Source: an uncultured virus (IMG/VR IMGVR_UViG_3300018080_000160) (Duplodnaviria; Heunggongvirae; Uroviricota; Caudoviricetes). Taken from it: a stretch of DNA of 64,000 bases. Shown here piece after piece: positions 25,434 through 62,752 of the stretch. Position 1 is the first letter of the stretch; each line of letters opens with the position of its first letter. The notes under the pieces are model-generated. The model ran no database searches, was not told where the DNA came from, and saw only the letters and a list, made by a program, of their open reading frames with translations. Position numbers and translations under genes: made by a program. The stretch is taken from IMG/VR virus record IMGVR_UViG_3300018080_000160, one strand, 5' to 3'.

Positions 25434-25508
25434 TGGTGACACGGGGGGGAATCGAACCACCCGACCTGCCCTTATCAGGGACACGCTCTACCGCTGAGCT
25501 ACCGCGTC
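25434..25508 (-). tRNA. tRNA-Ile (GAT), CCA encoded
   Basis: GACGCGG-TA-GCTC-AGCGGTA-GAGC-G-TGTCC-CTGATAA-GGGCA-GGTCG-GGTGG-TTCGATT-CCCCC-CCGTGTC-A-CCA; one U.C mismatch in the T stem. Confidence 0.92.
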
Positions 25509-28885: not shown

Positions 28886-28928
28886 TGTGACACATTTGTG
28901 ACACATTTGTGACATAAGTAGAGTCACA
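28886..28928. promoter_or_regulatory. TGTGACACA motif cluster 3 (11-bp tandem)
   Basis: TGTGACACATT-TGTGACACATT-TGTGACATA plus GAGTCACA, in a divergent promoter region. Confidence 0.75.
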
Positions 28929-29775: not shown

Positions 29776-29979
29776 ATGACTAAAAAGAAAAAAAAACGGA
29801 CGAAAATCGGGTTCGTGGTTGAGGTCGTGCCCAGAGAACCGCGCTTCTTCATGCCCTCGCAGGAGTCACTCGAACAAGATGCCCGGGATATGGTAGCCCA
29901 GATCAAGCGGCATGTTGACTGGGTGAACCATGTGAATGTATTCTGGGAATTCGCCGAAGAGGAGGCGGCGCGGGAATGA
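29776..29979 (+). CDS. micro-ORF chain member 1
   Basis: Ends EEEAARE* in the conserved junction. Confidence 0.6.
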   Translation: MTKKKKKRTKIGFVVEVVPREPRFFMPSQESLEQDARDMVAQIKRHVDWVNHVNVFWEFAEEEAARE

Positions 29980-30149
29980 TTCACTCTGAAGCGGTGGATT
30001 GTCCAATCTGTCAATTTCCCAGTTACCCAGCGGAAACTTGGGTTAGCACTTCGGCAGCATGTCAGTTTTGGCCCTATATCTGTACTAATCCGGTAGAATG
30101 TCACACGATCCTGTATCAATTAAGTGAGGTGACGACGCGGGATGTGTAA
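29976..30149 (+). CDS. micro-ORF chain member 2, Zn ribbon (57 aa)
   Basis: ATGA overlap; CPIC...CTNPVEC. Confidence 0.6.
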   Translation: MIHSEAVDCPICQFPSYPAETWVSTSAACQFWPYICTNPVECHTILYQLSEVTTRDV

Positions 30150-30264
30150 CCCGTACTATCCAGCGCATCTGCTCGTCGAGTGGCGCGAGCAAGAGAAAGC
30201 GCGGGAGCAGATCGGTTACGAATTGCGCCAGATCCTCCGGCGCAAGCGGGAGGCGGTCAAGTGA
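30142..30264 (+). CDS. micro-ORF chain member 3 (40 aa)
   Basis: GAGGTGA SD; MCNPYYPAHLL...REAVK*. Confidence 0.5.
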   Translation: MCNPYYPAHLLVEWREQEKAREQIGYELRQILRRKREAVK

Positions 30265-30428
30265 GCGAGAAGAAGTGTGGACACTGCGGGGCAACCCCCG
30301 TCACCCATTACTACGATTATCGCTGCCACTGGTCGCTACCAAAGGTTCGGGTCTGGTTGTGTGAAAAATGCGCGAAAAAACACAACGAGGCTCTAATTCA
30401 TCGCAAAGAGGAGGCGGCACGGGAATGA
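30261..30428 (+). CDS. micro-ORF chain member 4, Zn finger (55 aa)
   Basis: GTGA overlap; CGHC...CEKC; ends EEAARE*. Confidence 0.6.
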   Translation: MSEKKCGHCGATPVTHYYDYRCHWSLPKVRVWLCEKCAKKHNEALIHRKEEAARE

Positions 30429-30685
30429 ACGAGGAGGATGTCATGAATTTCGAGGCGGGGTATAAACGCGCGATAGCGCACCTCCGCGCGGGTGAGTTTG
30501 AGTCGCCCTTGGGCCAGATCCTTGGAAAAGTGGTGCTGGAGATCCTCGCGGACGAGCGGGAAAAGTTTGCCGCGAAACTCGTGGAGCAATACTGGTCGTA
30601 CAAGAAGGAGAATTCGTGTTATGACGCTAACACTCTCCTATCTCATTTACTCGGGATTATTAAAAAGGAGGCGGCCCGGGAATGA
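30425..30685 (+). CDS. micro-ORF chain member 5 (86 aa)
   Basis: ATGA overlap; ends KEAARE*. Confidence 0.6.
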   Translation: MNEEDVMNFEAGYKRAIAHLRAGEFESPLGQILGKVVLEILADEREKFAAKLVEQYWSYKKENSCYDANTLLSHLLGIIKKEAARE

Positions 30686-30819
30686 GGTTTGACCTGTATT
30701 ATGATCGAGGTCACTGGGTACTCGTCTGTGAGGACTGGGGCCTGAGATCCAGTTCCAAACGCCTGAGTCTACTCCTCAAAATCATCAAGCGATGTATCAC
30801 GGAGGCGGCGCAGAAATGA
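30682..30819 (+). CDS. micro-ORF chain member 6 (45 aa), weak HicB-N-like pattern
   Basis: MRFDLYYDRGHWVLVCEDWGL...EAAQK*. Confidence 0.5.
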   Translation: MRFDLYYDRGHWVLVCEDWGLRSSSKRLSLLLKIIKRCITEAAQK

Positions 30820-30856
30820 CGGGAAATAGAGAGATTGAACGAGGCGACAAAATAAA

Positions 30857-31081
30857 ATGAGTGTAGAGTTAATCAAAAAAGCAGGTAGACCGTACAAAAT
30901 CCAACGAACATCTAAAAACTCGATTCGAATCTACATCCCCCTCGACATCACCATTGATTCTCAATTCAACCTCAGCGATGAATACATAGCATCGTTGGTA
31001 AAAATTAGAGAAATAGATGGGTCGGAACGAGTTGGAGTGTTTCTCGAACCTCCCAAAAAGGCTGATGAAGCCTTATATTAA
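30857..31081 (+). CDS. AbrB/MazE-like DNA-binding protein
   Basis: KIQRTSKNSIRIYIP swapped-hairpin pattern. Confidence 0.55.
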   Translation: MSVELIKKAGRPYKIQRTSKNSIRIYIPLDITIDSQFNLSDEYIASLVKIREIDGSERVGVFLEPPKKADEALY

Positions 31082-32776: not shown

Positions 32777-35700
32777 CTAATCCTTGGCGGTTTTCTTTGC
32801 ATCTTTCTTCTTAGATGCCTTCTTTTTCGCAGCCTTCTTCTTAGCTGCCTTCTTCTTAGCTGGTTTTGGTTTTGGAGGTTCCTTTTTTGGTTTTGGAGGT
32901 TCCTCTTTTTTGCCTCCAGTTAATTTTTCATATGTTCGTTGTAGAGCGGAGATCATACTCTGTGCGTCCTTCTTTTCTTTCGCGGTTGCTTCCGGGTCAT
33001 TTAATGTTTCGTTCCAATATTCTAAGTCATCCTCGATGTCTTCCGCTGTTTGTTCCTCGTCCTCATTAATGTCACCTTCTTTGAGATTGCCTGCACGACG
33101 TTCTAATTCCGCACCAATATCAGTAATAGCTTTGTTCTCCTCGTCGCTACGCTCAAGTAACTTCTTCCGTTTAAGTTCTTGGTTCATTTCCTCTAAATCT
33201 GAATCGCTAAAGTCTTTTATCGGCTTAGATTTTAATGCATCTGGAATGTTTTCGAGCATTCGTTGGTGAGCTTCAAGCTTCTCGTCCGCTTCTTCCTCTT
33301 CCATGGCATCTTTGAGCTTTCTTTCCAATGCGTTTCTTGACTTGGCAGTAGTCTTTATATCGTACTCTTCTTTCAAGATTTCTCGAATCTCATCATCAGA
33401 ATACTCTTTCATCTTCTTCTCGTGAGTTTCCCTCGCTTTTACCCTCTCTGCAGCAGAAGGCTCTTCCGGTTCTTCTGGTTTAGGAACTTCCTTCGGAGCT
33501 CTCTTCGGAGCTTTCTTAGGAGCTTTCTTGGGAGCTTTCTTGGGAGCTTTCTTGGGAGCTCTCTTCGGAGCTTTCTTAGGAGCTTTCTTAGGAGCTTTCT
33601 TGGGAGCTTTCTTGGGAGCTTTCTTGGGAGCTTTCTTGGCTGGGAGCTTGGTTTGCCCTTTCGGTGGTTTCTCTTCCTTCTTGGGGGCTTTAGTACCAAG
33701 TTTCTTTCCCAACATTCCTTCTACTTCCTTTAGTTTCTTCTGTAATGTCTCAGATTTCATCCGCTCGAAGTTACCACGCGGCTTCTTGACTCCTTTTGGA
33801 AGTTGACTAATCTTCTCCCGCAATGAAGCAGCAAGTTGCTGTTGTTGTTCTTTCTTCGAAATAGGCTTTCCTTCCAGCGTCTGCTGTGCTGGCGGTTTCT
33901 CTTCCTTCTCTCCAGAAACGAGATTGACCAAATCTGCTTTTCGTGTGACGTCTTTTGGAATGTCGATCTTGTTCTCATTTAGCCATTCCTTGATGGTAGA
34001 GACTGTCCAATCACGGGTATTCTCCGGTTTCTCGCCGGGGTATTTCGCTTCTTCCTCGGCAGCAGCTTCTTCAGTTGGCTCTGCACCTTTTTCTTCTGCC
34101 CATAGATCGGTTGGGAGACCTAACGATTCTCGCTCCTCTTTCCATTTTTCCATATCAAACCCGAGATTTTCTTCCGGATTGCTCAACAGCTTATCCATTT
34201 TACCGACATCTATTTTCTTGCCCTTGAAATCTTCGTAAGCTTTAGTTATGTCGAGGATATTCTGCTTCGGAAATTTCTTGCCACCTTTTTGTTCCGCTTG
34301 CAACTGGCGTTGCACGTATTTTGCAACCATCTCCTCGAACTTCATCCGAGATTGTTCGACATTCTTCGGGCCTTCAACTTTCTTGCGTCCTCTTTGTTTC
34401 GGTTTTCCTTCTCCGCGCATCTCTTCAGCTTCTTCCTCGGTAATCTCTTTCATTTCCATCGGAGTCTGGAATACCTTATCGAGCTTTAGATTTCCTTCTT
34501 CGTCGAAAACAGGATTGCCCTCGTCATCTCGTCTGACTGCTTTGCCAACCGGAACTTCGTACTCCTCTCCTCCTATCATTACTTTGTAAGGTTCAGGCTC
34601 CTCAGTCGTGTATAATTTGCCACCGCTTTCAACTTCTGCTTGAATGAGTTTTCCTTGCTCTGCTGCCTTCTGTAGGAGTTTCTGGATACTGGGCATCGTG
34701 TATTTCCCTTTTTCTCCTCGGACTTCCTTCCCACCTTCCATCTTCATACCCATCTGCTGTTCAACGACACCCTCAGCCAAATCACGAATCGAGTCACTAT
34801 GCGATGCAAACTCGTTTGCAACATTCGTAATCTCTTTCTCCATCATATCGTAAGCTTCTTGCACGTTCTCGAATTTTTCCTTCGTGCTTTCGACGAGACT
34901 ATTAATCTTCCCAGCAAGCTCATCGTCATACTCGATAACTACACCGGGACGAACAGTAGAGCTAAGCTCCGTGAACATTGCATCCATATCTTGACGGGCT
35001 TTGTCGATTATCTTACTGAAACCTGAAAGTCGATTATTGAGTCTGTCCATATTAAGTTCCATTTTATCCTGTGTCTTAACCGTCTCAACAAGCTGCTGGC
35101 CCACGCCAGTCATGTATTGGTCAAATTTTGATTGTATATTCTCTATCTGTGATTGATACTGCGAAGAAGCCCGTTCCGCGAGTGCTTTATGAGCTAACTC
35201 GCTTGTCCGTAACCGAGACACTTCTTCTTTTGCTCTCGATAACGCTTCAGCATATCTGAGTGCTGGGTGATTTTTAATATAGTCATTCCGAAGATCCTGC
35301 AAACCTGTAGGCGAAAATCTTCTATTTCTATTTAGATTTTTCTGCCACTTCTCGGTAAGCAAATCTATCATGTATTCCTGACGTTCGCTGAGTTTGTCCG
35401 GGTCTCCCTCGTATATCACATCAAACCCAACGAGTTTATTATTCTCGATGGTTGGAGTGAGAACTACCTTAGCCCCATCTACATTTATGACATACCATTC
35501 ATCACCAGAGCCAAGACGTTTGTAGATAGCAAACATACGAGCTTCTTTGGATAGGAGCGGCTTAGGAACAACTTTACCGTCTTTATTTAACCATTTAGTT
35601 CCTTTTCCATAAGTCCCCGGCTTTCTGGTAAGCCACTCACCGTTTTTCCCAATCGCAGTAACAGGTAAAGGTTTTAGATTAGCCTTAAATTTATCCCCAG

Positions 35701-36874
35701 AATATCTTAACTTACTTTTAGTTAATTTCCTATACGTGTGCTTTCGCAAAGCATCAATGTAATTTTTCCTCTTCTCGTGAGGTACATTCAACGCAACTTC
35801 CATCGCTGTATCGAGCGCGTTCTTCTGAGTTGCATCAAAACCGGGAGCGGACAAGATATCCAAAGATTTTACAAAATCTGTCTCTATCTTAGACATAGGC
35901 TTGTTCTTGTCAATATTTAACTCCTCAGCGGTGAGTTCACGAACTCTTGCAAGACGTTTGTGAGCTTGGGATAATCTTCTAACTACATCTTTAATTTTAG
36001 GCCGAAATGGCCTCTCATCAATGTTATTTTCACGCGCTAACTGTAGCTGTTCATCTATGACCTTCTTCACTTGGTCTTCATCCGGGAGTCTGTTCGCCGG
36101 GATACCTGAAGCAATTTCGTCATACTTCGCGTACCTATCGCGTTTGACTTTATCACTTTCCTCCATAAGCTCGGATAACGTGATATTAGCTATCGCACCT
36201 TCTAATCGTCTAATCTGCTCAAAACTACGAAGTGAGCGTTCGAACGCATTTTCTGCTTCTCTTTTTTGCTGTTCTCTCCTCTCCCTCTCGTACCTTTCAC
36301 GCTCTTTTATCATCCAGTCCGGTAACTCGGACATCTTGTGTGTGATAAGTCCAAGTCTATTGCGCAGTTTCTGCTCCTCTTTAGCTGCCTTATTGAAGGT
36401 ACTCTGGTCTATATTACCACGACTAAGCATTTTCTCTAAATGCGTTCGAGTTGCGAACGCTTTATCGATCTGCTCTTTTAGTTTTAGAGCTTTTTTCTTG
36501 AGTTTTGCGTTCCGTTCATTAATCTCCCGCATTTCCTTTATCTTACGCTTTTCGACAGCTTCTTGTATCTTTTGAACGGATTCTTCCGAATATATGGATG
36601 TAGGTTCTTCCTCTGGCTTCTTAGGTTTGCGGCCTTTCTTCTCCCACTTCCACAACCCCTTACCAACTTTAACCTTTACCCTATCCCCAACAACAATTCT
36701 CTTTCCTACTGGAGCTTCAGGCCGACCAACTTTCCCTTCTCCTTGCCCCGGAGGTGCGGGCATTGCTTGCCCACCTTTCGGGACGCGAAGGGCTGGCTCT
36801 CGTGGTTTTGCTGGGCCGGGAGGCTTCGTGGGCATATACTTGAGGATAATCTCCTCTAAATCTTTGGCCGCCAT
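32777..36874 (-). CDS. large charged coiled-coil protein with HeH/LEM-like motifs and histone-H1-like PKKA repeats
   Basis: 1365 aa; WTVSTIKEWLNENKIDIPKDVTRKADLVNLV; (APKK)n; AAKKK tail. Confidence 0.8.
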   Translation of the reverse strand: MAAKDLEEIILKYMPTKPPGPAKPREPALRVPKGGQAMPAPPGQGEGKVGRPEAPVGKRIVVGDRVKVKVGKGLWKWEKKGRKPKKPEEEPTSIYSEESVQKIQEAVEKRKIKEMREINERNAKLKKKALKLKEQIDKAFATRTHLEKMLSRGNIDQSTFNKAAKEEQKLRNRLGLITHKMSELPDWMIKERERYERERREQQKREAENAFERSLRSFEQIRRLEGAIANITLSELMEESDKVKRDRYAKYDEIASGIPANRLPDEDQVKKVIDEQLQLARENNIDERPFRPKIKDVVRRLSQAHKRLARVRELTAEELNIDKNKPMSKIETDFVKSLDILSAPGFDATQKNALDTAMEVALNVPHEKRKNYIDALRKHTYRKLTKSKLRYSGDKFKANLKPLPVTAIGKNGEWLTRKPGTYGKGTKWLNKDGKVVPKPLLSKEARMFAIYKRLGSGDEWYVINVDGAKVVLTPTIENNKLVGFDVIYEGDPDKLSERQEYMIDLLTEKWQKNLNRNRRFSPTGLQDLRNDYIKNHPALRYAEALSRAKEEVSRLRTSELAHKALAERASSQYQSQIENIQSKFDQYMTGVGQQLVETVKTQDKMELNMDRLNNRLSGFSKIIDKARQDMDAMFTELSSTVRPGVVIEYDDELAGKINSLVESTKEKFENVQEAYDMMEKEITNVANEFASHSDSIRDLAEGVVEQQMGMKMEGGKEVRGEKGKYTMPSIQKLLQKAAEQGKLIQAEVESGGKLYTTEEPEPYKVMIGGEEYEVPVGKAVRRDDEGNPVFDEEGNLKLDKVFQTPMEMKEITEEEAEEMRGEGKPKQRGRKKVEGPKNVEQSRMKFEEMVAKYVQRQLQAEQKGGKKFPKQNILDITKAYEDFKGKKIDVGKMDKLLSNPEENLGFDMEKWKEERESLGLPTDLWAEEKGAEPTEEAAAEEEAKYPGEKPENTRDWTVSTIKEWLNENKIDIPKDVTRKADLVNLVSGEKEEKPPAQQTLEGKPISKKEQQQQLAASLREKISQLPKGVKKPRGNFERMKSETLQKKLKEVEGMLGKKLGTKAPKKEEKPPKGQTKLPAKKAPKKAPKKAPKKAPKKAPKKAPKRAPKKAPKKAPKKAPKKAPKRAPKEVPKPEEPEEPSAAERVKARETHEKKMKEYSDDEIREILKEEYDIKTTAKSRNALERKLKDAMEEEEADEKLEAHQRMLENIPDALKSKPIKDFSDSDLEEMNQELKRKKLLERSDEENKAITDIGAELERRAGNLKEGDINEDEEQTAEDIEDDLEYWNETLNDPEATAKEKKDAQSMISALQRTYEKLTGGKKEEPPKPKKEPPKPKPAKKKAAKKKAAKKKASKKKDAKKTAKD
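33492..33640. repeat. 12-bp tandem repeat (about 12 copies) encoding APKK/APKR
   Basis: Unit CTTTCTTGGGAG with variants; 60-bp higher-order period. Confidence 0.95.
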
Positions 36875-36883
36875 ATTCGATCT

Positions 36884-37237
36884 CTACCCCTCAAATAATC
36901 TTTTAAGAGAGTGTGCTGCCGCTTTCTGCGCAATCTGTTTTTTAGTAGGATCTGTCTCTTCAAGCGTCTTACTAAGCTCTCCTCTAACTTTCTTCTTCTT
37001 GCTCTTTTCAGATTTCTTTTTCTTTTTCTTACCTTTCGTACCGCCTCTCAAGAGCCTTCGCTTAGCCAGCTTGCGTTCAAGAGATTGCTTCTCTCTAACT
37101 TCCGGTCTAATACCAGTCTCCGGATGGTACTTCATCGCACCACTCTTCTCTTTCCGGAAGAATCCACGATGACCAGCACGAGAACCAGCAGCATACTTCT
37201 CGATTATTTCTTCAACTTGTCTATTGTTTTTGGACAA
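36884..37237 (-). CDS. small highly basic head-module protein
   Basis: 117 aa, KGKKKKKKSEKSKKKK. Confidence 0.7.
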   Translation of the reverse strand: MSKNNRQVEEIIEKYAAGSRAGHRGFFRKEKSGAMKYHPETGIRPEVREKQSLERKLAKRRLLRGGTKGKKKKKKSEKSKKKKVRGELSKTLEETDPTKKQIAQKAAAHSLKRLFEG

Positions 37238-38072
37238 CTGGAACCACCACTACCTTTCCTTTACTTTTCTTTTGCACATAACTAACTGGAACAGGAACCA
37301 AAGAACACTTACAGTAAGGATGTGGATCTGGAGGTTTAATCACATCCCTCTTCGTGAAAGGACTCTTTCCGAACGAATGTCCTATCTTTACCGCTTTTCC
37401 GTGCAGCCCCTGACAGAAATCACAAGTATTGGTCTCAAAACTCGCTTGCCACATCCAATGCGTGATTCCAGATGCAATATAAACTCTGGCACGGCCATTA
37501 TTGATTGCACGGCGGACTTCGTTATGTGCGATGTTCCGTGCCCGCCGTATATTTGTCTTCGTAATCTTTCGTATATCTTGAGCGAGTTGCTCCACGGTTT
37601 TCTTCGCATCTAATGTTTCTGCAACTAAAACACGAATCTTAGATAACTGATTTTGGCTCAAGTTTTTGATTAACGAGACATTCACATTAGTTAGATTTGT
37701 TATAGTCTGAGAAACAGGAACGATTTTCGGAGCAGTAACTCCGACTTGTTTGAGTTTACTTGCTCCTTGTTTAACTCCACGAACAACTGCAGTTTTTACG
37801 AATTTTTGTAGTTGACTCTTCAAGAAAGGTAACTGAATTCGGTCAAGTGAGCGTTCTATTCTATTCAAATCTTTCTGGCTCACTACATCTTTTATTTTCT
37901 TCTTCGCGTACTGCTTAATCACGAATTCCTCACCTTTCAACGCATCTAATGTAATTTTTTCCTCTGCTTTCAGAATCCTGACCGCGTATTTGTAATAAGG
38001 GATATACAAATTACTGGATTCCGTCTGATCTTTCTTTATCTTGAAGAAAGACTCCGGCAAAGCTTTCGTCAC
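37221..38072 (-). CDS. minor head protein (MuF / SPP1 gp7-like)
   Basis: RARNIAHNE..A; W......TCDFC..LHG; PP.PHPYCKC. Confidence 0.9.
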   Translation of the reverse strand: MTKALPESFFKIKKDQTESSNLYIPYYKYAVRILKAEEKITLDALKGEEFVIKQYAKKKIKDVVSQKDLNRIERSLDRIQLPFLKSQLQKFVKTAVVRGVKQGASKLKQVGVTAPKIVPVSQTITNLTNVNVSLIKNLSQNQLSKIRVLVAETLDAKKTVEQLAQDIRKITKTNIRRARNIAHNEVRRAINNGRARVYIASGITHWMWQASFETNTCDFCQGLHGKAVKIGHSFGKSPFTKRDVIKPPDPHPYCKCSLVPVPVSYVQKKSKGKVVVVPVVQKQ

Positions 38073-40084: not shown

Positions 40085-40618
40085 TTGAAGGTGTTAATAA
40101 ATACGGTGAAAAACGCACTCCCACTTAATAAAAAAGAATTTCAGCAATTCATAAAAGACAACGCAGACAAGTTCTTGACGAAAACTGAAGCATATAACAC
40201 CGTCCGCGAAGCGTTGCGTGATGATATTAGAATATTTGGTGATGATGAGATGAGTGAAAATTTCTTAGATGAATTATTGGCCGAGGATGACGATTTCGGG
40301 GGCAAAAAACAGGTAACCCTCGATGAAGCGTTAGGGAAATTTATGACAGTCCCTCACGAAGCGAAGAAGAATTACGGGTTAATACTCACCGCAAGCGGGA
40401 AAGCATTCGGGTCGTTCAACACGAAAGTTTACACGCCGGAAGTAATAGCGTTGAAGTATAGCTCGGTTCTCGGGCCTTCAAAAATAATCGAGGTAGTTGT
40501 TCGTGGGAGGCAAACCATCGCAGTAACGAGTCAATACTGCAAACTCAAAGATATGGACGAACTCGAACTTCCAACCAACCCGACCAACTTCAACCGTCAA
40601 GGTAGTTGCTCCGCTTAA
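40085..40618 (+). CDS. hypothetical protein inserted antisense between TerL and portal
   Basis: 177-aa ORF filling the gap; true start may be internal. Confidence 0.55.
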   Translation: MKVLINTVKNALPLNKKEFQQFIKDNADKFLTKTEAYNTVREALRDDIRIFGDDEMSENFLDELLAEDDDFGGKKQVTLDEALGKFMTVPHEAKKNYGLILTASGKAFGSFNTKVYTPEVIALKYSSVLGPSKIIEVVVRGRQTIAVTSQYCKLKDMDELELPTNPTNFNRQGSCSA

Positions 40619-42233
40619 CCATAACTACAAAACTACCAACTTTTTCTTTTCTTTTTTGTTGCTTCTCTAACATTTCTCTGCTGACATTATACTCTTTTGG
40701 TTTTCGGTCATCTACGACAATATGAGTCGTCTTCTTGCGTCTTGCGCGAAATCTACGAGTTACTTTGTATAGCCCGTGCATCAGCGCGTCAACGAAGTCA
40801 TCCTTTCCTTTCTTGAGAGTACCAGTAGTGAAGTCATCTGTCTTACCTGCTAACTTCTTCCACCGTAAGGAGATTAACTCACCAATCAAAAGCGTGAAAT
40901 CTTTCGGTATCTTGATGAGCCTCTCCTCAAAGAAATAACACATATTCTCGACGAAACGATTTTTCATCAATTTTTTCTTAGTTCCTTTAGCACCGAAGGA
41001 ATCTGAAGCAGAGCCAAATCTTGAACGAGAGAAGGAACAGCCTATTACTGCACACTCCCTTTCGAGATTATCGCAGAGAGCCTTAGAGATAGGTGCATCT
41101 TCCACTATTACATAAACAGGCCCGAAATCTTCAGCACCTAAGTAATTTAGACAACGCTCTGCTTCTCTAAGAATCTTAGTGCGCATAGATTTCTCCGTAA
41201 TGTTCTGATAGCCTTGAGCATTATAGATATATACCCTTCCAGCCTTTATACCAAGAGTAACAAAAGTAGAATAGTGGTTAGAGCGAGCAGGGTCGCTGCC
41301 AATCACAAAATACTCCATGGATGCAGGATCTGGTAGATTTGGAATGAAGTAATCGTTAGTAGCGGCATCTATATCCTCCTGCCGGATAATAGAGCCACCA
41401 TAAGAACTCCATTCACCAAGAACATTTCTCCTTATCGCATGGATAGATTTATACTTCTTTTTCATCTGTTCGACGGTTTTCGGGAATAACCATCCCCCTT
41501 TTTCCACCAAACAATCATAGGCTGACCAGTGGTGGGTCTTAAAATCGTGTTTTGGGTCATGTTCCCACTCGTATGAAACATGGCCGGGGTCGTCCGGCGT
41601 TCCCGCTATGACGCATTTCCACGCCGGGGCTGTAATCATCTCCCCCCAATATTCTTCAATAACATCCTCGGGTGTGCTGCAAATTTCGTCAATAATTTGC
41701 ACCTTTGCCCGTGGGCCTTTAACATCTGTCTGTGAAGCAGCCAATATCATCAACTGAGACTCAGTTCGACGAAATATTGCTGTGCGTTTCTGCGGAACAG
41801 CCAACTGATTAAGAACTGGGCTGTTTTTTATCATCTTCTTTGCATACTTGCGGTACGCTTCACCTGCCTGACGCTCTGAACCTGCCAAGATTGGAATGTC
41901 CCATCTATGGTTGTTACAGTCGTGTCTGTAAATATCTAACACCGCACAATAACAGATAAGGAAAGATTTCGCGCCACCACGATTACAGCGCAGGAACAAG
42001 TTCGGAATGTCCGCGTCAAGAAAATCGTGCATGAATTCAATTTGAAAAGAAGTAAATCCACGGAACTCATTCATCTCGCTCATATCTTTCATGAGATCAA
42101 TGCCAAGAATTTCATCTGCAAACCGCTCAGGGTACTTGGTAAAATAATCAAATTCACCCATCTGAGCGCGTTCATGGGTGCGGAATTGGAGGATTAACTC
42201 CTCATACTCCGCAACCGTCATTTGTGTGGCCAT
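40590..42233 (-). CDS. terL: terminase large subunit
   Basis: Walker A RCNRGGAKS; KG..QIIDE; AGTP; nuclease GSDPA..DDFVDAL. Confidence 0.9.
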   Translation of the reverse strand: MATQMTVAEYEELILQFRTHERAQMGEFDYFTKYPERFADEILGIDLMKDMSEMNEFRGFTSFQIEFMHDFLDADIPNLFLRCNRGGAKSFLICYCAVLDIYRHDCNNHRWDIPILAGSERQAGEAYRKYAKKMIKNSPVLNQLAVPQKRTAIFRRTESQLMILAASQTDVKGPRAKVQIIDEICSTPEDVIEEYWGEMITAPAWKCVIAGTPDDPGHVSYEWEHDPKHDFKTHHWSAYDCLVEKGGWLFPKTVEQMKKKYKSIHAIRRNVLGEWSSYGGSIIRQEDIDAATNDYFIPNLPDPASMEYFVIGSDPARSNHYSTFVTLGIKAGRVYIYNAQGYQNITEKSMRTKILREAERCLNYLGAEDFGPVYVIVEDAPISKALCDNLERECAVIGCSFSRSRFGSASDSFGAKGTKKKLMKNRFVENMCYFFEERLIKIPKDFTLLIGELISLRWKKLAGKTDDFTTGTLKKGKDDFVDALMHGLYKVTRRFRARRKKTTHIVVDDRKPKEYNVSREMLEKQQKRKEKVGSFVVMVKRSNYLDG

Positions 42234-44888: not shown

Positions 44889-45431
44889 TCAGATATACAT
44901 GCCACCGTGCGGTTCCGATTCTCGGTTCTCGTCCTTGTCCGTTTTTTTGTGCCCCGGAAGGGAATTCTGGCGTTTTAGAATTGGGATTATTTTTAATGTC
45001 CGCATTCCGGGAGGCAACTGGGCTTGGAGTTGCTCGATAAGAGGTTGCACTGGAAAGTGTTCTTCAATCATGGCTTGTACCTGTTTTTCGCCTGCTATGA
45101 TGGATTCTTCAATCCGCTCGTCTAATTGACGGTTTAACATCTCCCGGATAATGAACTCACCGAGTAGGTGGTAATACCGCTGCCCAACGCTATCGTAGCG
45201 CAACGAGCAAACGATAAACTCGGTGTAGATGTCTCGGGAAAGGGCAAAGAGAATATCTGGGGCCATTTCGTTCGTGCGTTTTGGGTCAAACATGGACGCG
45301 AGATCGTACCAAGCGCATCCTCCACATTCGGGGCAGACGAGATAGCAGGATTCGTCGTTTATTTCGGCAGTGTCAGTGAACCCGCACCGCCAACAGCAAA
45401 CAGTGATTTTGGACATTTTTTCGGTCACCAT
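44889..45431 (-). CDS. Zn-ribbon protein, first gene of an operon
   Basis: CWRC...CPEC; TATA box about 25 nt upstream (probably leaderless). Confidence 0.7.
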   Translation of the reverse strand: MVTEKMSKITVCCWRCGFTDTAEINDESCYLVCPECGGCAWYDLASMFDPKRTNEMAPDILFALSRDIYTEFIVCSLRYDSVGQRYYHLLGEFIIREMLNRQLDERIEESIIAGEKQVQAMIEEHFPVQPLIEQLQAQLPPGMRTLKIIPILKRQNSLPGHKKTDKDENRESEPHGGMYI

Positions 45432-45451
45432 TTACTATAGTGAGGTTAATG

Positions 45452-45523
45452 TTATATAAATATGTTGTGTAATTGTTGTGGTGTCACATTTGTGACTCTC
45501 TTGTGTCACATTTGTGTCACATT
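45452..45523 (-). promoter_or_regulatory. TATA promoter with upstream TGTGACACA cluster 4
   Basis: Minus-strand TTTATATAA at ~45452-45460; motif copies at 45481, 45491, 45502, 45513. Confidence 0.7.
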
Positions 45524-45553
45524 GGATTGATGGATTTTGTCGGCGGCTAAATG

Positions 45554-45866
45554 AAAAAAAAAGAGAAAGCGTGTCTACCAAGTACCCCCGTGCGAGTAGA
45601 TTTCGGCTGTAGTGGCCCCTTTCGGTACTCGTACAGCGTAATTTCGACCCGCACCCCTCTCGGGCTTGTATCTTGGTAGTGTTTGGTCACTGCTCACCGT
45701 AGGTCTCTCGAAAAACTTATCGAGGCTGCCCCACCCCTTCCTATCCGTCACCCCGTGCCATTGGGGCCACTGCGTCACCCCGTCTCCCCCCTCGGGTGGC
45801 TATCTGCGTGATCTCGGTCTGGCTTCGTCGGGTATCGGGGTGCATCGGTTCAAGCGAGACGAGTGA
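45554..45866 (-). ncRNA. candidate structured non-coding RNA (~300 nt)
   Basis: GC-rich island, TATA-like CTTATA at 45883-45888, U-tract end, nested helices and GNRA tetraloops. Confidence 0.6.
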
Positions 45867-46203
45867 ATGTATGCCATCGTGGTATAAGAAGGTTACGATA
45901 GTTTAGCCGGAGGTAGAGTGAAAAAACGCCCCGCGTATTTAGGAACCTGATGTCTCCGCCCCCCAAACCGCCGCCGATCTTTGGAGATCGACGGAAACTT
46001 CAGCCATCTCCGAATTTTTGGCCATTAAACTTAGATTCGGATGAATCTATGCATCTGAATCATACCAGCTTGATGGAAACTATAGGATCTCCATCCCAAA
46101 TGGTCCTGCGTGACCCCTATGGCGTCCTTTGGGACGTGGAGTCACGTCAATTCTATGGCCCAAATCTAAGTTAGAATCGACGTAGGGCTGATCTGCATTA
46201 GCA

Positions 46204-46917
46204 TTAAGGTGAGGGTTTTTCCATCATAATCTTGCGCGGAATTCCATCAACCTTTTCCCCATTATCCCCAACAATCTCGATCTCACCACTTTCAAGAGAT
46301 TTTTGGACGTTAGCGACCTTTTCCGCGATCTCTTGCAAGCTCGGGATAGGTGACGTTCCAGCATGAATTTCGTTGTTGTGGCTTGTTGTGTTAACTGTAT
46401 TGATGGAAATGCGACGTGCATCCACATTTGGGCTGGAACCCTTAGATCGCGCCATGCGTCCGCAATGCTCGGAAAGAAGCTTGAGTAGCTTGTCCATCCG
46501 ACGCATGAGGAATTTCCTATACTCCACGTCGATAGCTCCTTCAAGCTCGTATTTGGTTAGATGGATTTGGGCTTTAATCTCTTGCCCAACGTCGATAGGC
46601 TCTTTGCTAAGCATGAATCGACGTATGGCGTCCAAATCATGCATGTGACGTTTGGCATGATTGGCGATAGATGTAGGATGGATTACTTCTCCCATCTCAG
46701 CCAAACGTATAGCTATTTCCTTTGGTTTCTTTTTTTGGACAATCATATTGTTGATTGTGGCTGCAAATTGGCTCACACAACATTTACATTGAGGATTGAA
46801 GACTTTGAGTATGCTATCAGGCACTACATCTACCGAATCAGATGCATCTTCCTCAGAATCTATCAAAGATTGTAATGGGCCTTCAGAATCGTTAGTTTTA
46901 TCTTTCACGTAGTTCAC
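46204..46917 (-). CDS. Zn-binding HTH protein, candidate terminase small subunit
   Basis: CKCC..I......KEIAIRL......SIANHAKRH followed by helical region; TerS role is inference. Confidence 0.5.
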   Translation of the reverse strand: MNYVKDKTNDSEGPLQSLIDSEEDASDSVDVVPDSILKVFNPQCKCCVSQFAATINNMIVQKKKPKEIAIRLAEMGEVIHPTSIANHAKRHMHDLDAIRRFMLSKEPIDVGQEIKAQIHLTKYELEGAIDVEYRKFLMRRMDKLLKLLSEHCGRMARSKGSSPNVDARRISINTVNTTSHNNEIHAGTSPIPSLQEIAEKVANVQKSLESGEIEIVGDNGEKVDGIPRKIMMEKPSP

Positions 46918-46940: not shown

Positions 46941-46994
46941 AATATAAGTATTTTGTGACACATGAAAAATAGGTTGTGTTACAAATGTGTCACA
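46941..46994 (-). promoter_or_regulatory. TATA promoter with TGTGACACA cluster 5
   Basis: Minus-strand CTTATATT adjacent to motif at 46954; further copies at 46975 and 46986. Confidence 0.7.
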
Positions 46995-49474: not shown

Positions 49475-49497
49475 TCTATTCACCTTTTCACCCAACT

Positions 49498-49543
49498 TTC
49501 GGGTTTGGTTTATGTATTAACCCGAATTCCGATTTGCACGGAA
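49498..49543 (-). promoter_or_regulatory. structured intergenic element B
   Basis: TTCCG-TGCAAAT-CGGAA then TTCGGGTT-AATACATAAACCA-AACCCGAA. Confidence 0.7.
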
Positions 49544-49601
49544 AATAAAAGAGAAAAAGGGGTGTTTGCTTCAGAACCAACAAATATTCCAAATCTCTCG
49601 G

Positions 49602-50311: not shown

Positions 50312-50617
50312 TTAAAATGTAGTTTTACACTTGAAATAGTGTTTAAACGAATCCATGGGCATCAAAAATCTACCTTTGTGGCCCATTATCAATCCCCGTC
50401 TAACTATTGCGCGGGGAGGATTCGTATTAGGCTCTTTCAAGTGGAAAACGAGTATGGCTTTGTGGATATTACCGGAAAGCTGATCTGGTGTTTTCCCGAG
50501 ATTTGTAACTTGTCCGGTAAAAATATAGCAAGGTAGATCGGGTTTTCGCCCAATCCTCTTGCGGTATTCCCTCAGATCGTCGTGTAGTTTGAAGATCCCG
50601 TACATTGTGAAGCTCAT
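50312..50617 (-). CDS. hypothetical protein
   Basis: 101 aa, ATGA overlap with the vWA gene. Confidence 0.65.
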   Translation of the reverse strand: MSFTMYGIFKLHDDLREYRKRIGRKPDLPCYIFTGQVTNLGKTPDQLSGNIHKAILVFHLKEPNTNPPRAIVRRGLIMGHKGRFLMPMDSFKHYFKCKTTF

Positions 50618-52863
50618 TTCAAAGCTTCCGCCTTGTACCTATCAATAGCTCGCGCGATAAGCTTTTTCAGCTCATTAGTGACCCGATCTATCGACGTACT
50701 AACCTTCTCGTCTTTCCGGAAGAAGTTTCCGGTAAATCCGTTAAGGTCAAAGCCTTCAACCCCAACCAAATAGGGTTTTATAGGCTCACGTCGGAGATCA
50801 TTCATTATCGCACCAGATACTGTTGGATCTTGGTCTGCTGATTCCCCATCGGTTATTACGAAGAGCAGCCGGAGTTTCTCGGGACGTTTGCGCAGCTCGT
50901 TAACAACATGAGCCATAGCAGGCCACATAACGGTTCCACCAGATGTTAATCTGATAAAGGTATGGCGGAATGTATGGAAGGGTTCCTCAAAGCCTTTAAC
51001 CCGATAGAACAGATTCTCAAAGTTCCACATCCCAAATGGGATATTGGCTTTAGCAAGGGCACCTGCGATAACTCCGGCAAATTTCTCGCATGAATCTGTA
51101 TCCATGCTTCCGGAAACATCCGTTAACAACCCAACAGATAGATTTAATCTGCCGGATTTCGCCAATTGTTTCCCACTAAAGAGCTTGGTGGTGCTTGGGT
51201 TACTCTTGGCTTTCAACAGGCGTCGCATGTTGAGCTTTCCCGAGTTTTTTCTCCGGAGTCTTTCAGTCCCTTCACCAAGTTTTCTGTTGAAGAAATTCCC
51301 CAGATCCTCACTTTCTTTATCTATGTGAAGATCCCGTAGTCTTTGGCGCAATTCGGGGGAGTCTTCCCGTAATTGGGGAGTTCTACGCATGCTTCCCGAA
51401 CCAGAACCCGCACCCGCTCCCATAACTTGCCCTTTATTGCAGAGCTTCTTCAAATCTTGCTTAAGCTCTTGCAATTGGCCCTTGGTGAGTTTTTGGAGCA
51501 TCTCATTGTCACCAGCTTGTTCTTTCTGCTGGTTTATGAGCTTTCTTCTATTAATCCGCTTTACCTTGGGGGTTTTAGGCTTTCCATCCTTAGATTTGCC
51601 CCCTTTAGGCTTCCCGTCTTTGGGCTTTTTGGGATCTTTAGGATCTCCATTCCCTTTCCCGTTTTTGGGCTTTCCGGGGCCTTTGGGATCTTTACAATCT
51701 CCTTTAGGCTTCCCGTCTTTGGGCTTTCCGGGATGATCTTGCGGGTTACCGGGTTGATCTCCTTGATCTTGTGGGTTACCGGGTTGATCTCCTTGGGGGT
51801 TCCTTGGTGGTCCTGCTGGATCTCCCCCCTTAGGTGGGTCGGAAGGTGGATTCGACGGTCCTGATGGCCCCCTTGGGGGTTCCGGCTCAAGAGATTCCCC
51901 GGATTCGAGGAATTCTCTCAAGTAGGTCAAGCAATGTTCCGCATGCTCTACGATATCTGACATATTCGCGCCTTTCTTCATTAGATTTTTGCGCAAATAA
52001 TTTCCGGCATGGAGAATCTCCCGAATCGCTCGCTGGGAGAGCTGCTCTTCCAAAGGTTTGTCAAACATGATTCCTCCGGAGAGAGTCTGTTGTAACCAGC
52101 TCTCCCAGACCTTTTCCTCAAGATCGTCGATCTGGTCGATTTTTGGACGCTCAAGTAAATAACCTTTGTCCACGTCCTCGAACCGAGTAATGTAACCCGG
52201 CGAATCTTGATCTCCGAGGAAATTGGTTAATACATCGGATGCCAAATTCAATCCTAATGCAGCTTTCTCGGGGATCGTCGGGAATTTCCGCTGAATCTTA
52301 GCCATTTCTTCCAGATCAGCGGTTCCGTAAAGCACATGGTCTATCTCATGCTTGAAGATCCGTTCTATCCGATCTATGAGCAAACCGGGATTACTCCCGT
52401 AGATTCGTGCTTTTGTATCTACCGAGATCACGATTTGGTCGTTGTTGGTCGCCGAAAGCCCATTCCCGTTCTGGAATTTAACGGGAATCTTTGGGGCGTT
52501 ATACTTCTTCTTCCAAAATTCGAATAACTCAAGCACATCGAATTCTGGAAGTTTACGTTCCGCTAAACCGCCGTGTTTGGCGATTACGTCACGTACAATG
52601 TCCCAAGGGACGTTTCGGTATAATGCCTTCTTTGGCTTCTTCACCCATGTTGAATAGGGTTGAAGCAAAATCTCCTTCCGGCTCACGTTTCGTATTTCCA
52701 GCTCTTCCCATGGCCCTCTAAAATTCTGCGGCCTGCAAGCCGCATAGTCACCCACTTTGACCCGGAACATGAACCCGTCGTTACATTCGACGGATTTTAG
52801 TGGATCTCCGTAGGAATTCCTTGGAAGGCCCATAACAAGAGCTGAAAGCTCTTTTTTATTCAT
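50614..52863 (-). CDS. vWA-domain protein with HExxH metallopeptidase-like region and P/G/K-rich linker
   Basis: HEIDH; MIDAS DVSGS...GGT...ITDG; QGDQPGNPQD and KPKDGKPKG repeats. Confidence 0.9.
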   Translation of the reverse strand: MNKKELSALVMGLPRNSYGDPLKSVECNDGFMFRVKVGDYAACRPQNFRGPWEELEIRNVSRKEILLQPYSTWVKKPKKALYRNVPWDIVRDVIAKHGGLAERKLPEFDVLELFEFWKKKYNAPKIPVKFQNGNGLSATNNDQIVISVDTKARIYGSNPGLLIDRIERIFKHEIDHVLYGTADLEEMAKIQRKFPTIPEKAALGLNLASDVLTNFLGDQDSPGYITRFEDVDKGYLLERPKIDQIDDLEEKVWESWLQQTLSGGIMFDKPLEEQLSQRAIREILHAGNYLRKNLMKKGANMSDIVEHAEHCLTYLREFLESGESLEPEPPRGPSGPSNPPSDPPKGGDPAGPPRNPQGDQPGNPQDQGDQPGNPQDHPGKPKDGKPKGDCKDPKGPGKPKNGKGNGDPKDPKKPKDGKPKGGKSKDGKPKTPKVKRINRRKLINQQKEQAGDNEMLQKLTKGQLQELKQDLKKLCNKGQVMGAGAGSGSGSMRRTPQLREDSPELRQRLRDLHIDKESEDLGNFFNRKLGEGTERLRRKNSGKLNMRRLLKAKSNPSTTKLFSGKQLAKSGRLNLSVGLLTDVSGSMDTDSCEKFAGVIAGALAKANIPFGMWNFENLFYRVKGFEEPFHTFRHTFIRLTSGGTVMWPAMAHVVNELRKRPEKLRLLFVITDGESADQDPTVSGAIMNDLRREPIKPYLVGVEGFDLNGFTGNFFRKDEKVSTSIDRVTNELKKLIARAIDRYKAEALK

Positions 52864-53160: not shown

Positions 53161-53191
53161 TTTGCTTTTCTCCTTTGTTATTCACCCAAAT

Positions 53192-53236
53192 TTCGGGTTT
53201 GGTTTAGATTTGAACCCGAATCTCTATTGAAAGAGA
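53192..53236 (-). promoter_or_regulatory. structured intergenic element C
   Basis: TCTCT-TTCAAT-AGAGA then TTCGGGTT-CAAATCTAAACCA-AACCCGAA. Confidence 0.7.
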
Positions 53237-53263
53237 AAAAAGGAGAGAAAAAGACTTTGGTGC

Positions 53264-53482: not shown

Positions 53483-53501
53483 AGTATTTTCACCCATATT
53501 A

Positions 53502-53545
53502 GGGCTTTGGTTTATGTGCTAAGCCCATTTCGGATTTGAACCGAA
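53502..53545 (-). promoter_or_regulatory. structured intergenic element D
   Basis: TTCGG-TTCAAAT-CCGAA then GGGCTT-AGCACATAAACCA-AAGCCC. Confidence 0.7.
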
Positions 53546-53581
53546 AAAATAAAAAGAAAAAAGGGTGTGTGAGCTTTAGGC

Positions 53582-57774: not shown

Positions 57775-57932
57775 TTCTGTATCTCCTTTACGATAATGTC
57801 AATAATAACATCAGCGATAGCGTCCCACTTGGCGTTCATTTTCATTCCGAGTTTCAGATAGTATTCGAGTTTCTCGGCGATGATTTTCTTACATTTTCTG
57901 ATTTTTTCTATAAACGCCTTAATCTTCCTCAT
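57771..57932 (-). CDS. small hypothetical protein (53 aa)
   Basis: Likely start MRKIK at 57932; longer version overlaps the ERCC4 gene. Confidence 0.5.
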   Translation of the reverse strand: MRKIKAFIEKIRKCKKIIAEKLEYYLKLGMKMNAKWDAIADVIIDIIVKEIQK

Positions 57933-58719
57933 CCTCCTGCTCGTCGGGGTGCGTCTGCCACTCTTCAGCCTCGTAATCCGAATCTTTTCCTCGGATATAC
58001 TCGTAAATCTTTTTCGCAATCTTGTACGGTTTTTTCTTGAATCGTTCAAGATTCACAGCATTCACGTCTAACCCGGAAATGATGAGAGATAATGCAGGAA
58101 TGGTTAACGAACAAATTTCATAGACTGTAAGCCCGCTATCAGCAATCTTATTGGCGATAACAGGCCCGACATCTGGGATTGAGCGTACCATCGTAGCTGT
58201 AGGGTTTCCCTTCACTGGCTTTACCGTTTTCGTGAGATCGACTTTAATAGACTCGATAGAGGATGCTCCATACATTATCGTGCGAATAACCCACCAGAAG
58301 AAATCGTGGAGATTTGGAAATCCACACACGACTGGAATCCCAGCCGCGAAATACTTGCTCATAACAGTGAGAATAGCAAGCCTCTTCTGGTCATCAACAG
58401 ATGTCATATCCCCGTGAACTGCGACAACAGGAATCTTTTTGTTGTCACGAGCTTTTACTAATTTTACTAACTGGCTCCGGTAACGCGGGACATTCGTACT
58501 ATCTCGATCTACGATAGATGCAAAGAAATCGTCCCATGTTTTTCGCTCGATAACCACGCCATTACCCTCGAAGTCTCCTGCTTCCAATTTCAGTTTTCTG
58601 ATGTCCAGATTAATCGGATCTCTCTTCTGAACCCCATTATTCATGTGCCGGATAACATCCTCCAGCGCACTGATTACGTGCTTGGGTTCGCGGGTATCAA
58701 CAATTATACTCAAATCCAC
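57919..58719 (-). CDS. ERCC4/XPF/Mus81-family nuclease with HhH motif
   Basis: IIVDTRE; GDF; IERKTWDDFFASI; SIPDVGPVIA. Confidence 0.93.
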   Translation of the reverse strand: MDLSIIVDTREPKHVISALEDVIRHMNNGVQKRDPINLDIRKLKLEAGDFEGNGVVIERKTWDDFFASIVDRDSTNVPRYRSQLVKLVKARDNKKIPVVAVHGDMTSVDDQKRLAILTVMSKYFAAGIPVVCGFPNLHDFFWWVIRTIMYGASSIESIKVDLTKTVKPVKGNPTATMVRSIPDVGPVIANKIADSGLTVYEICSLTIPALSLIISGLDVNAVNLERFKKKPYKIAKKIYEYIRGKDSDYEAEEWQTHPDEQEDEED

Positions 58720-59182: not shown

Positions 59183-60145
59183 TTACCTCGCGCTGCTCTT
59201 CTTCTTGGCGGTTCGAGTTCGTTTATTCAACTGCGATGCAATCCACATCACTGCAATCTTTGGATGCGCTCCAACCGCGATTCGGTAATCTGCCTCTGCG
59301 ATAAGAGCGATTAGATTACGCTTAGCAGATTCGCTAATCTTACTTTCGATTGTGTAGTCGAGCAACTCGGTCAAGAACTGTCTCTCGCTGACGGAGAGTT
59401 TTTCGACCACATCTACAACGAACGAACCAGTTTGGGTGATACTGCTATTGATAGCAATCTTTACGAATTTAGAACACGCTTTTCGAACGCCGCTGCCAAA
59501 CACAGAGATGTCACCTCCCTTTTCGTACACGCCAAGCATCTTAATCGCGTGGCGCATCTGACCGTTGGAAGATTTGACGATCTCGTTCAAATCATTGTCA
59601 TCGTACTCGACTTTTTCTCGTTTGGCCACCTCCTTCAAGCGTTCAATTATCGCGTCGTCCTCGATGGGTCGAAATCTGGCAATGAAGCAACGGTCAAGTA
59701 TAGCTGGGTGAATCTTTGATTCGTCATTTGCAGTGAATAGACAAAGGACATTCCGCGATCTGGTTTCTAAATCTCGACGAAATCCTTGCTGTGCTGCCGT
59801 ACTCATATTATCGATCTCCTCACCCACGAAAATCTTACGCCTACCACTCGTAAAGCAAGCAGTAGACATAAATTTCGTAAACGGGCCACGGAGATTGTCT
59901 ATTCTACCGTCTTTGGAAGCATTCACTTCCATAAAATCGCGCTCGCCAACGGAAAACGATTTGCGTATCACGTTAATACAGCTCGTCTTGCCCGTACCCG
60001 GCGGCCCTACAAATAGAACATGAGGCATCTTCTCTCTCGGGTCGTTTTTCTCCTTTTCGACTAATACCCTCAATCTTTTCAAGACTTTCTCGTTCCCTTT
60101 CAAGTCTTTCCACGAACGGGGCCTGTATCTAACTTCAAGACTCAT
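59183..60145 (-). CDS. rfcS: clamp loader (RFC) small subunit
   Basis: RYRP; PHVLFVGPPGTGKT; EVNAS; EEIDNMS..AQ; DRC (SRC motif variant). Confidence 0.93.
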   Translation of the reverse strand: MSLEVRYRPRSWKDLKGNEKVLKRLRVLVEKEKNDPREKMPHVLFVGPPGTGKTSCINVIRKSFSVGERDFMEVNASKDGRIDNLRGPFTKFMSTACFTSGRRKIFVGEEIDNMSTAAQQGFRRDLETRSRNVLCLFTANDESKIHPAILDRCFIARFRPIEDDAIIERLKEVAKREKVEYDDNDLNEIVKSSNGQMRHAIKMLGVYEKGGDISVFGSGVRKACSKFVKIAINSSITQTGSFVVDVVEKLSVSERQFLTELLDYTIESKISESAKRNLIALIAEADYRIAVGAHPKIAVMWIASQLNKRTRTAKKKSSAR

Positions 60146-62707: not shown

Positions 62708-62752
62708 TGTGTCACAACCGTGTGTCACATTTGTGACACAAAAGGTTTTAAT
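62708..62752. promoter_or_regulatory. TGTGACACA cluster 6 with BRE/TATA-like element
   Basis: TGTGTCACA at 62708; inverted repeat TGTGTCACA-TT-TGTGACACA at 62721-62740; then AAAGG-TTTTAAT. Confidence 0.75.

Follow-up and report, generated by a model that had tools for sequence, protein, structure and literature searches.

A GC-rich non-coding island with one RNA-like module in the late region of an uncultured tailed virus: an orphan candidate

Background

Small RNAs of tailed phages are among the described systems closest to the locus analysed here. RNA C and RNA D of phage T4 are orphan small RNAs without an assigned family. In phage lambda, the 6S transcript that runs from PR' to tR' is located upstream of the late operon and is subject to Q antitermination. 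The pRNA of phi29, which we take to be the Rfam family Phage_pRNA (RF00044), goes with a phi29-type packaging ATPase and a protein-primed genome. We know of no described family of structured non-coding RNAs from archaeal tailed viruses, and a literature search for such a family yielded nothing relevant in sources that were accessible in part.

The window of this study, i.e. the whole stretch of DNA analysed, comprises 64,000 nucleotides (64 kb) of an uncultured virus (IMG/VR record IMGVR_UViG_3300018080_000160). An earlier note, made from the sequence alone, had proposed that positions 45554-45890 encode an unclassified viral non-coding RNA with a structured length of about 300 nt. In our analysis the stretch was non-coding, belonged to no Rfam family and had an RNA-specific fold in its 3' third, but the structured length of about 300 nt was not confirmed. 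The island is a real non-coding GC-rich stretch with one credible RNA-like module of 105 nt, and is an orphan candidate.

Like the two T4 RNAs, the island may give rise to a short, stable, non-coding transcript of a tailed virus, although it is a candidate known from sequence alone. The T4 RNAs are encoded in a tRNA cluster and freed by tRNA processing, whereas the island is located 20 kb from the only tRNA of the window. With the PR'-tR' unit of lambda it shares, as a positional analogy only, a short unit with a terminator ahead of a lysis, packaging and head-tail block. In contrast to lambda, the gene that follows the island is equipped with a TATA box and operator repeats of its own, no antiterminator was identified, and the virus appears to be archaeal, as indicated by a clamp loader resembling an archaeal RFC small subunit (E 4e-33). 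The phi29 pRNA likewise is encoded by a virus and has a structure with a three-way junction. A phi29-type pRNA was nevertheless rejected, as there was no covariance-model match, the virus has a T4-type terminase rather than a phi29-type motor, and no interlocking loops were identified. GOLLD, ROOL, OLE and raiA RNAs resemble the island in being GC-rich, GNRA-bearing and often phage-borne. These families have covariation support across many genomes, whereas the island has no second copy and matches none of them.

Genomic context of the island

Family searches and structure comparisons identified the following features in the window.

8540-10324: baseplate J-like protein (Pfam)
25434-25508, minus strand: tRNA-Ile, anticodon GAU, GC 0.64 (Rfam match at 25437-25508)
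25868-26833: major capsid protein (PHROG and Pfam)
37221-38072: Mu-F-like head protein (Pfam scan)
40590-42233: large terminase, T4-type with nuclease domain (Pfam matches to Terminase_6N and Terminase_6C)
57919-58719: ERCC4 nuclease (Pfam)
59183-60145: clamp loader (family match and structure comparison)

The closest solved relatives of the clamp loader are the RFC small subunits 2chq and 1iqp, presumably archaeal entries, which match over the full length at E 4e-33; the match to T4 gp44 has an E of 5e-16. Because the clamp loader matches the archaeal RFC small subunit best, the host is likely archaeal. The same sequence was present in two sediment metagenome DNA runs from two studies, one of which may be its source, while no RNA run was among those containing it; unitigs from these runs were identical to the window, with no variation, where they covered it (44916-45066 and 45848-46067).

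The island is situated in a gene-free gap of 772 nt (45432-46203) between two minus-strand genes. The gap and its surroundings contain the following features.

46204-46917, minus strand: upstream gene, 237 aa, conserved in relatives
45927-46203, minus strand: hairpin-dense upstream half of the gap, outside the coordinates given in the earlier note
45902-45926: right copy of an imperfect 25-nt direct repeat, ending in plus-strand A6, i.e. minus-strand T6 (45921-45926)
45883-45888, minus strand: CTTATA, a TATA-like candidate promoter, weak match
45686-45860, minus strand: G-rich 5' part (G 0.36, U 0.14), in the RNA sense with four GGGGUG and one CACCCC
45575-45679, minus strand: predicted three-way junction of 105 nt (MFE fold, shuffle test)
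45572-45574, minus strand: ACA directly 3' of the closing stem, read from the sequence
45554-45562, minus strand: T9 (U9) run, plus-strand A9, joint-longest T-run of the minus strand
45535-45559: left copy of the imperfect 25-nt direct repeat, running into the A9/T9
45452-45527, minus strand: promoter region of gene 44889-45431, with TTTATATAA and copies of GTGTCACATTTGTG at 45481-45527
44889-45431, minus strand: downstream gene, 180 aa, an ORFan heading the block that leads into the large terminase (40590-42233)

Read along the minus strand, the hairpin-dense part (46203-45927) is followed by the T6 run (45926-45921), CTTATA (45888-45883), the GC-rich island and the T9 run (45562-45554). Further on there are two to three copies of GTGTCACATTTGTG (45527-45481) and then TTTATATAA (45460-45452), which sits 20 nt ahead of the ATG of the 180-aa gene.

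The motif TGTCACATTTGTG together with its near-palindrome occurs in 15 copies at up to two mismatches versus 1.76 expected, a number reached in 0 of 100 shuffles. Copies are located at 937-952, 28888-28914, 45481-45527, 46980-46992 and 62723-62738. About 11 of the 15 are found just upstream of gene starts, and four two-mismatch copies lie within genes. The motif probably serves a viral regulator as its operator or promoter element.

The upstream 237-aa protein carries invariant C44, C47, H87 and H91 (C-x2-C ... H-x3-H), a long helical region and a coiled coil, and its AlphaFold model (mean pLDDT 63.6) has a confident helical core. It is the sole neighbour of the island that is conserved across relatives, with homologues at 200-904 of L001, 188-1267 of L003 and 17019-17888 of L006; the homologue in L003 has a GC-rich, proline-rich C-terminal extension. 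A protein word search with the 237-aa protein found only the protein itself. Foldseek comparisons with PDB and BFVD gave no match at E <= 0.001, and small terminases appeared only at E of about 2-3 with TM <= 0.26. Because no fold match was obtained at this threshold, nothing beyond position speaks for the idea that this protein is a small terminase and that the island serves it as a pac site. For the 180-aa protein no homologue besides itself was found. Two suggestions of the earlier note on the wider context failed: no link of the island to packaging was found, and an Sm-like gene elsewhere in the window was not recovered, as none of the 78 ORF translations matched an Sm/LSM family (Pfam, E <= 0.01).

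Composition and coding potential

The GC maximum of the 64 kb lies within the island at 45721-45870 (0.647 versus a mean of 0.438; z 4.25 in 150-nt windows). The longest ORF of the island, 45575-45778 on the minus strand, encodes 67 aa from a GTG start. In a frame-specific codon model it scores -0.021, lower than each of 216 segments of the same length taken from real genes (mean 0.217, sd 0.083), and its GC content is flat over the codon positions (.54/.56/.62 versus about.53/.37/.56 in neighbouring genes). The generic codon score of 0.102 exceeds that of 98.7% of 153 spurious ORFs; since other minus-strand frames reach similar values, we ascribe this to the purine richness of the strand.

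None of the island ORFs matched PHROG or Pfam, also at E <= 10. In a HMMER search of 1.84 billion representative proteins, ORF 45575-45778 gave 3 matches at E <= 0.001 and none at E <= 1e-10, and no homologue of similar length was found among these representatives. The three matches are repeat proteins of 558-2,818 aa in each of which the matching stretch of 14-40 residues recurs. We read them as summed weak matches and not as homology. The island is non-coding by every test run. This agrees with the earlier description of a GC-rich island without a convincing ORF, and ORF 45575-45778 showed no codon-type signal.

Five of the 14 CACCCC sites of the window fall into the 190 nt of 45652-45842; the window-wide count is at the level of chance (15.4 expected). 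Among the island sites there is an exact repeat, CGTCACCCCGT, with two copies 27 nt apart and one inverted copy.

Two further GC-rich loci were noted. A second GC peak at 29960-30900 is a plus-strand cassette of small ORFs (57, 55, 86, 45 and 14 codons) opposite in orientation to the surrounding genes, with GGAGGCGG before each ORF and GGAGGCGGC in four of the five. As a possible kin of the island it was discarded, being an unrelated small-gene cassette. Another local GC peak coincides with tandem repeats of 30-54 nt (D3, D6, D10) at 51602-51793, inside the 749-aa gene 50614-52863.

Secondary structure

Folding of the 3' domain (45575-45679, minus strand) yielded a junction closed by the stem CTACCAAG/CTTGGTAG (45575-45582/45672-45679; 8+3 bp overall). 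It contains a CCC-GAGA-GGG hairpin at 45655-45664 and a long arm (45590-45654) formed by GTGCGGGT/ACTCGCAC and GCTGTA/TACAGC, with an internal loop about CGAAAU/AAUUAC and a CC-GAAA-GG tip (GAAA at 45620-45623). The stems, the GAGA hairpin, the long arm and its tip had all been listed in the earlier note and were recovered at the same coordinates. On the minus strand the domain reaches -41.0 kcal/mol, versus -28.9 +/- 3.15 for shuffled sequences (z -3.84), and 0 of 200 shuffles folded as well. The MFE structure is identical to the centroid and reappears intact in the centroid when 337 nt or 652 nt are folded. The plus strand is less stable (-37.5 versus -41.0 kcal/mol), and 2 of the 34 pairs are G-U pairs that would be C-A mismatches if the other strand were transcribed.

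Stability alone fails to single out the 3' domain, because the virus is rich in hairpins. In a composition-corrected scan its residual z was -2.38, and 2.05% of 8,520 windows, representing 60 distinct loci, were as good; among random 111-nt windows of the virus, 6 of 160 had a shuffle z <= -3.8. The stability of the domain is thus only in the top 2-4% of this virus and not unique. What does single it out is an RNA-specific detail, the paired GNRA tips. Both of its two hairpin loops are GNRA loops (GAGA and GAAA). At least one GNRA loop was present in the MFE folds of 38 out of 1,318 windows, and at least two in a 111-nt MFE fold in 1 out of 1,318 windows of the virus and in 1 out of 400 shuffles of the domain. 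The single window with two such loops, 7276-7386, has a weak fold of -19.3 kcal/mol. An RNA duplex search of the island RNA against 76 gene start regions gave a best value of -59.9 kcal/mol, which was equalled or surpassed by 67% of 60 shuffled RNAs.

The pairings that the earlier note had assigned to a 5' domain exist as complementarities: CACCCCG at 45748 and 45775 is complementary to CGGGGTG at 45837, and a CTCGA/TCGAG hairpin is found near 45709. The fold as a whole is no better than that of shuffled sequences. For 45686-45830 on the minus strand z was +0.31, with 125 out of 200 shuffles folding as well, and the plus strand of the 5' domain gave a z of -0.21. In the composition-corrected scan the 5' part even fell short of the stability expected for its composition (z +1 to +2.7). 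Its minus strand is G-rich and U-poor, which restricts pairing. From both tests it follows that the proposed 5' helices are not above chance. Over the whole 337 nt, z was +0.32 on the minus and -0.42 on the plus strand in comparison to dinucleotide shuffles. The proposed structured RNA of about 300 nt is therefore supported in part, namely for about one-third: the 3' domain of about 105 nt (z -3.84) stands, and the 5' two-thirds behave like shuffled sequence.

The upstream half of the gap, outside the flagged coordinates, is at least as structured as the island. On the minus strand, positions 45915-46205 fold with -102.8 kcal/mol into several hairpins of 9-13 bp, with the T6 run at the end; z was -3.79, none of 200 shuffles folded as well, and the plus strand had a z of -2.30. 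This half is either the 3'-UTR of 46204-46917 or a second unit. Given the structure of this half, the island may be no gene of its own but the last part of a longer non-coding region.

Other local folds of the window were recorded. An element of about 73 nt occurs three times (49487-49559, 53181-53253 and 53489-53561; 74-78% identical) and on the minus strand consists of a T-rich run, a TTCGGGTT...AACCCGAA hairpin and the start of a small ORF. The three small ORFs may be related, since their starts are alike. These elements account for several of the strongest local folds in the 48-56 kb region. The strongest composition-corrected local fold of the window (33526-33635, plus strand; -54.4 kcal/mol, residual z -6.3) is antisense within the 1,365-aa gene 32777-36874.

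Comparison with known RNA families

A search of the 64 kb with the 4,227 models of Rfam 15 at gathering thresholds returned only the tRNA at 25437-25508. At E <= 10 the gap gave SNORA17 on the operator repeats (16.4 bits versus a threshold of 29) and TB9Cs3H2 (12.8 versus 50), both of which we regard as chance. No known family thus matches the island. The statement of the earlier note that no RNase P, SRP or ribozyme core can be recognised was borne out, as clan models for SRP RNA and RNase P RNA did not match and no Rfam family was found.

The 3' domain resembles archaeal H/ACA sRNAs in its long lower stem with an ACA directly 3' of it (45572-45574). The 11 nt of the stem and 4 nt of the junction add up to 15 nt, in accordance with the spacing of about 14-15 nt between pocket and ACA; the chance of an ACA at one given position is 1/64. 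An H/ACA sRNA was rejected, as the arm has no K-turn or K-loop and no tandem G-A, and a two-sided guide pocket is lacking, the junction strands being 3 (or 13) and 4 nt long. The H/ACA models in Rfam gave only chance rows, at E 2.2 and 7.8, which fall on the opposite strand or at other positions of the gap.

Transcript ends and flanking repeats

Archaeal RNA polymerase terminates at oligo-T, i.e. a run of at least five T in the non-template strand, and this type of termination needs no hairpin. The U-tract that the earlier note had seen downstream of the island is the T9 run at 45554-45562, which begins 12 nt past the closing stem of the 3' domain. At the sequence level it has the form of an archaeal oligo-T signal, a T-run at the 3'-end of a unit in an intergenic position, and all six minus-strand T-runs of at least 8 nt are intergenic. 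The T9 run is likely the 3'-end or terminator of a minus-strand transcript. A bacterial-type intrinsic terminator was rejected, as it needs the U-run within 0-2 nt of the hairpin instead of 12 nt, and none was predicted at 45554-45582.

The CTTATA hexamer also is present where it had been described (45883-45888, minus strand). The same hexamer occurs 27-33 nt upstream of the start of 46204-46917, in a likely promoter. A bacterial-type promoter scan found no sigma-70-like site at 45883-45888. As a promoter of the island's own the hexamer is a weak candidate, and this promoter is the weakest link of a reading as RNA.

The two 25-nt direct repeats that bracket the island are identical at 18 of 25 positions (72%). 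With the A-run kept intact, 0 of 300 shuffles reached 18 and the maximum was 17. The repeats fit a duplicated terminator module or an insertion of the island with target duplication. The flanking repeat on the plus strand was also considered as a ribosome site with a start codon, and discarded: it is followed only by ORFs of 10 and 42 codons with spurious-like scores.

Related viruses

The virus has few relatives. Four homologues of the terminase were found in 5.8 billion clusters, one of which (P0002, 66% identity) is encoded on an 85-kb ENA contig. Scans with the large-terminase alignment A1 recovered 8 loci from JGI metagenomes, 1 from IMG/VR and 0 from GTDB genomes. The alignment of the 237-aa protein (A3) recovered only the same viral contig as the terminase search, and single-protein scans for related loci found nothing. 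Three distinct relatives of the virus were compared.

In the closest relative, L001, the terminase is 67% and the homologue of the 237-aa protein 33% identical. The latter gene is followed by a gap of 348 nt which has no similarity to the gap containing the island (local alignment score 19 versus a shuffle mean of 19.7) and which itself folds moderately well (z -2.39). When 17 ORFs of L001 were compared with the window by tblastn, only the 237-aa homologue matched, and nothing significant was found in the gap. The 9 kb between this homologue and the terminase (L001 905-10000) contain wholly different genes, several of them for Cys-rich proteins. L001's unrelated gap and gene cargo thus mark the interval from the 237-aa gene to the terminase as hypervariable, apparently a cargo hotspot, and leave the island so far unique to this virus.

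Searches for the island itself agree with this. A blastn search against the related loci found nothing; a covariance model of the 3' domain (R1), run at E <= 10 over 137,575 nt of related loci, recovered the domain of this virus alone; GenBank phages searched in distant mode contained no homologue of the island; and four pattern scans gave 0 matches. As no homologue is available, there is no covariation.

Discussion

We favour, tentatively and with somewhat less than even confidence, the reading that this non-coding island acts at the RNA level, as a short minus-strand transcript that stops at the U9 run and has the 3' junction for a functional module. A leftward transcript of the minus strand would end at 45554-45562, and the junction (45575-45679) would form a compact, nuclease-resistant 3'-end whose GNRA loops might serve as docking points for a protein or a second RNA. 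The G-rich 5' part (about 45686-45860, with its four GGGGUG) would be a largely single-stranded tail. We infer transcription itself, its start at CTTATA, which would produce a stand-alone RNA of about 300 nt, rather than a start further upstream, and any function. A regulatory or decoy role is a conjecture suggested by the position just before the packaging and late block. Several observations speak against the RNA reading: the searches returned no homologue and hence no covariation; the stability of the 3' domain is only in the top 2-4% of the virus; the 5' two-thirds and the complete 337 nt fold like shuffles; the promoter is a weak TATA-like hexamer; and the bracketing repeats also fit an inert insertion. 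A structured gap moreover is not unusual in this virus, because it has several other long hairpin-rich gaps.

The island might instead be an inert insert, about 340 nt of foreign or decayed DNA in a hypervariable region, functionless and with hairpins that are leftovers or chance. We hold this to be doubtful, though well worth weighing. Such an insert would account for the imperfect direct repeats around the island (18/25, 0/300 shuffles), for a composition unlike the rest of the virus, and for a setting in which the block from the 237-aa gene to the terminase is wholly different in L001 and the 180-aa neighbour has no homologue. The missing conservation of the island and a fold stability that ranks no higher than the top 2-4% for this genome point the same way. 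It is less compatible with two GNRA-capped hairpins in one defined junction, which are rare (1/1,318 windows), and with the joint-longest minus-strand T-run right after this junction. Nor does the island retain the protein similarity or codon periodicity of a decayed gene, as ORF 45575-45778 matches only 3 repeat proteins at E <= 0.001 and none at 1e-10.

Unlikely, in our estimation, is a mere unit boundary, in which the 772-nt gap belongs to the 237-aa gene as its 3'-UTR and terminator region, and the junction with U9 serves as a cis terminator or insulator, with no independent RNA gene. The upstream half of the gap, which is at least as structured (45915-46205, z -3.79), the two minus-strand T-runs (T6 at 45921-45926 and T9 at 45554-45562), the next gene's promoter and operator repeats directly after them, and the moderate fold of the equivalent gap in L001 (z -2.39) would all be expected at such a boundary. 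However, archaeal oligo-T termination would have no need of the hairpins, the spacing of 12 nt between stem and U-run is not that of a bacterial-type intrinsic terminator, T6 should already stop much of the upstream transcript, and the other gaps of the virus are AT-rich, not GC-rich.

A more far-reaching form of the preferred reading as an RNA would be a self-contained, horizontally inserted non-coding RNA cassette with promoter, G-rich tail, GNRA junction and oligo-U terminator, which landed at a terminator of an archaeal tailed virus, duplicated a target of about 25 nt and represents a new class of regulatory RNAs at the switch to the packaging genes. We regard this as improbable.

Slightly more improbable still is a function at the DNA level, with CACCCC/GGGGTG as binding sites of a viral protein (a pac-like or regulator array) and the 5' helices as by-products of repeat copies. 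The clustering of 5 of the 14 CACCCC sites within 45652-45842, including CGTCACCCCGT twice and its inverted copy, is in line with such an array, and so is the position of the island ahead of the packaging genes and directly after the gene of the conserved 237-aa protein, which is Zn- and helix-rich with a coiled coil. On the other hand, the motif is not enriched over the window (14 versus 15.4 expected), the local C-richness raises the local expectation, fold searches with the 237-aa protein gave nothing at E <= 0.001, the motif has no conserved counterpart in the gap of L001, and the GNRA-capped junction is left unexplained.

Translation of ORF 45575-45778 (67 aa, GTG start) into a small protein is scarcely believable: it is the longest ORF of the island, with a generic codon score (0.102) better than those of 98.7% of 153 spurious ORFs and weak stretches like the repeat units of large proteins, but that score stems from the purine-rich strand, the frame-specific score is below 216/216 gene pieces with flat GC, and neither a Pfam or PHROG match nor a homologue of similar length among 1.84 billion representatives was obtained.

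Conclusions

The useful result of this analysis is that the claim has been narrowed: of the 300 nt proposed, about 105 carry signal, and protein coding as well as known RNA families are excluded. As a single orphan sequence the island deserves to be kept as a lead but does not amount to a discovery. Should the 3' junction prove to be a genuine RNA module, it would be one of the rare structured non-coding RNAs in archaeal tailed viruses, whose RNA biology has hardly been explored, and its position before the packaging genes would provide a handle on late-gene control.
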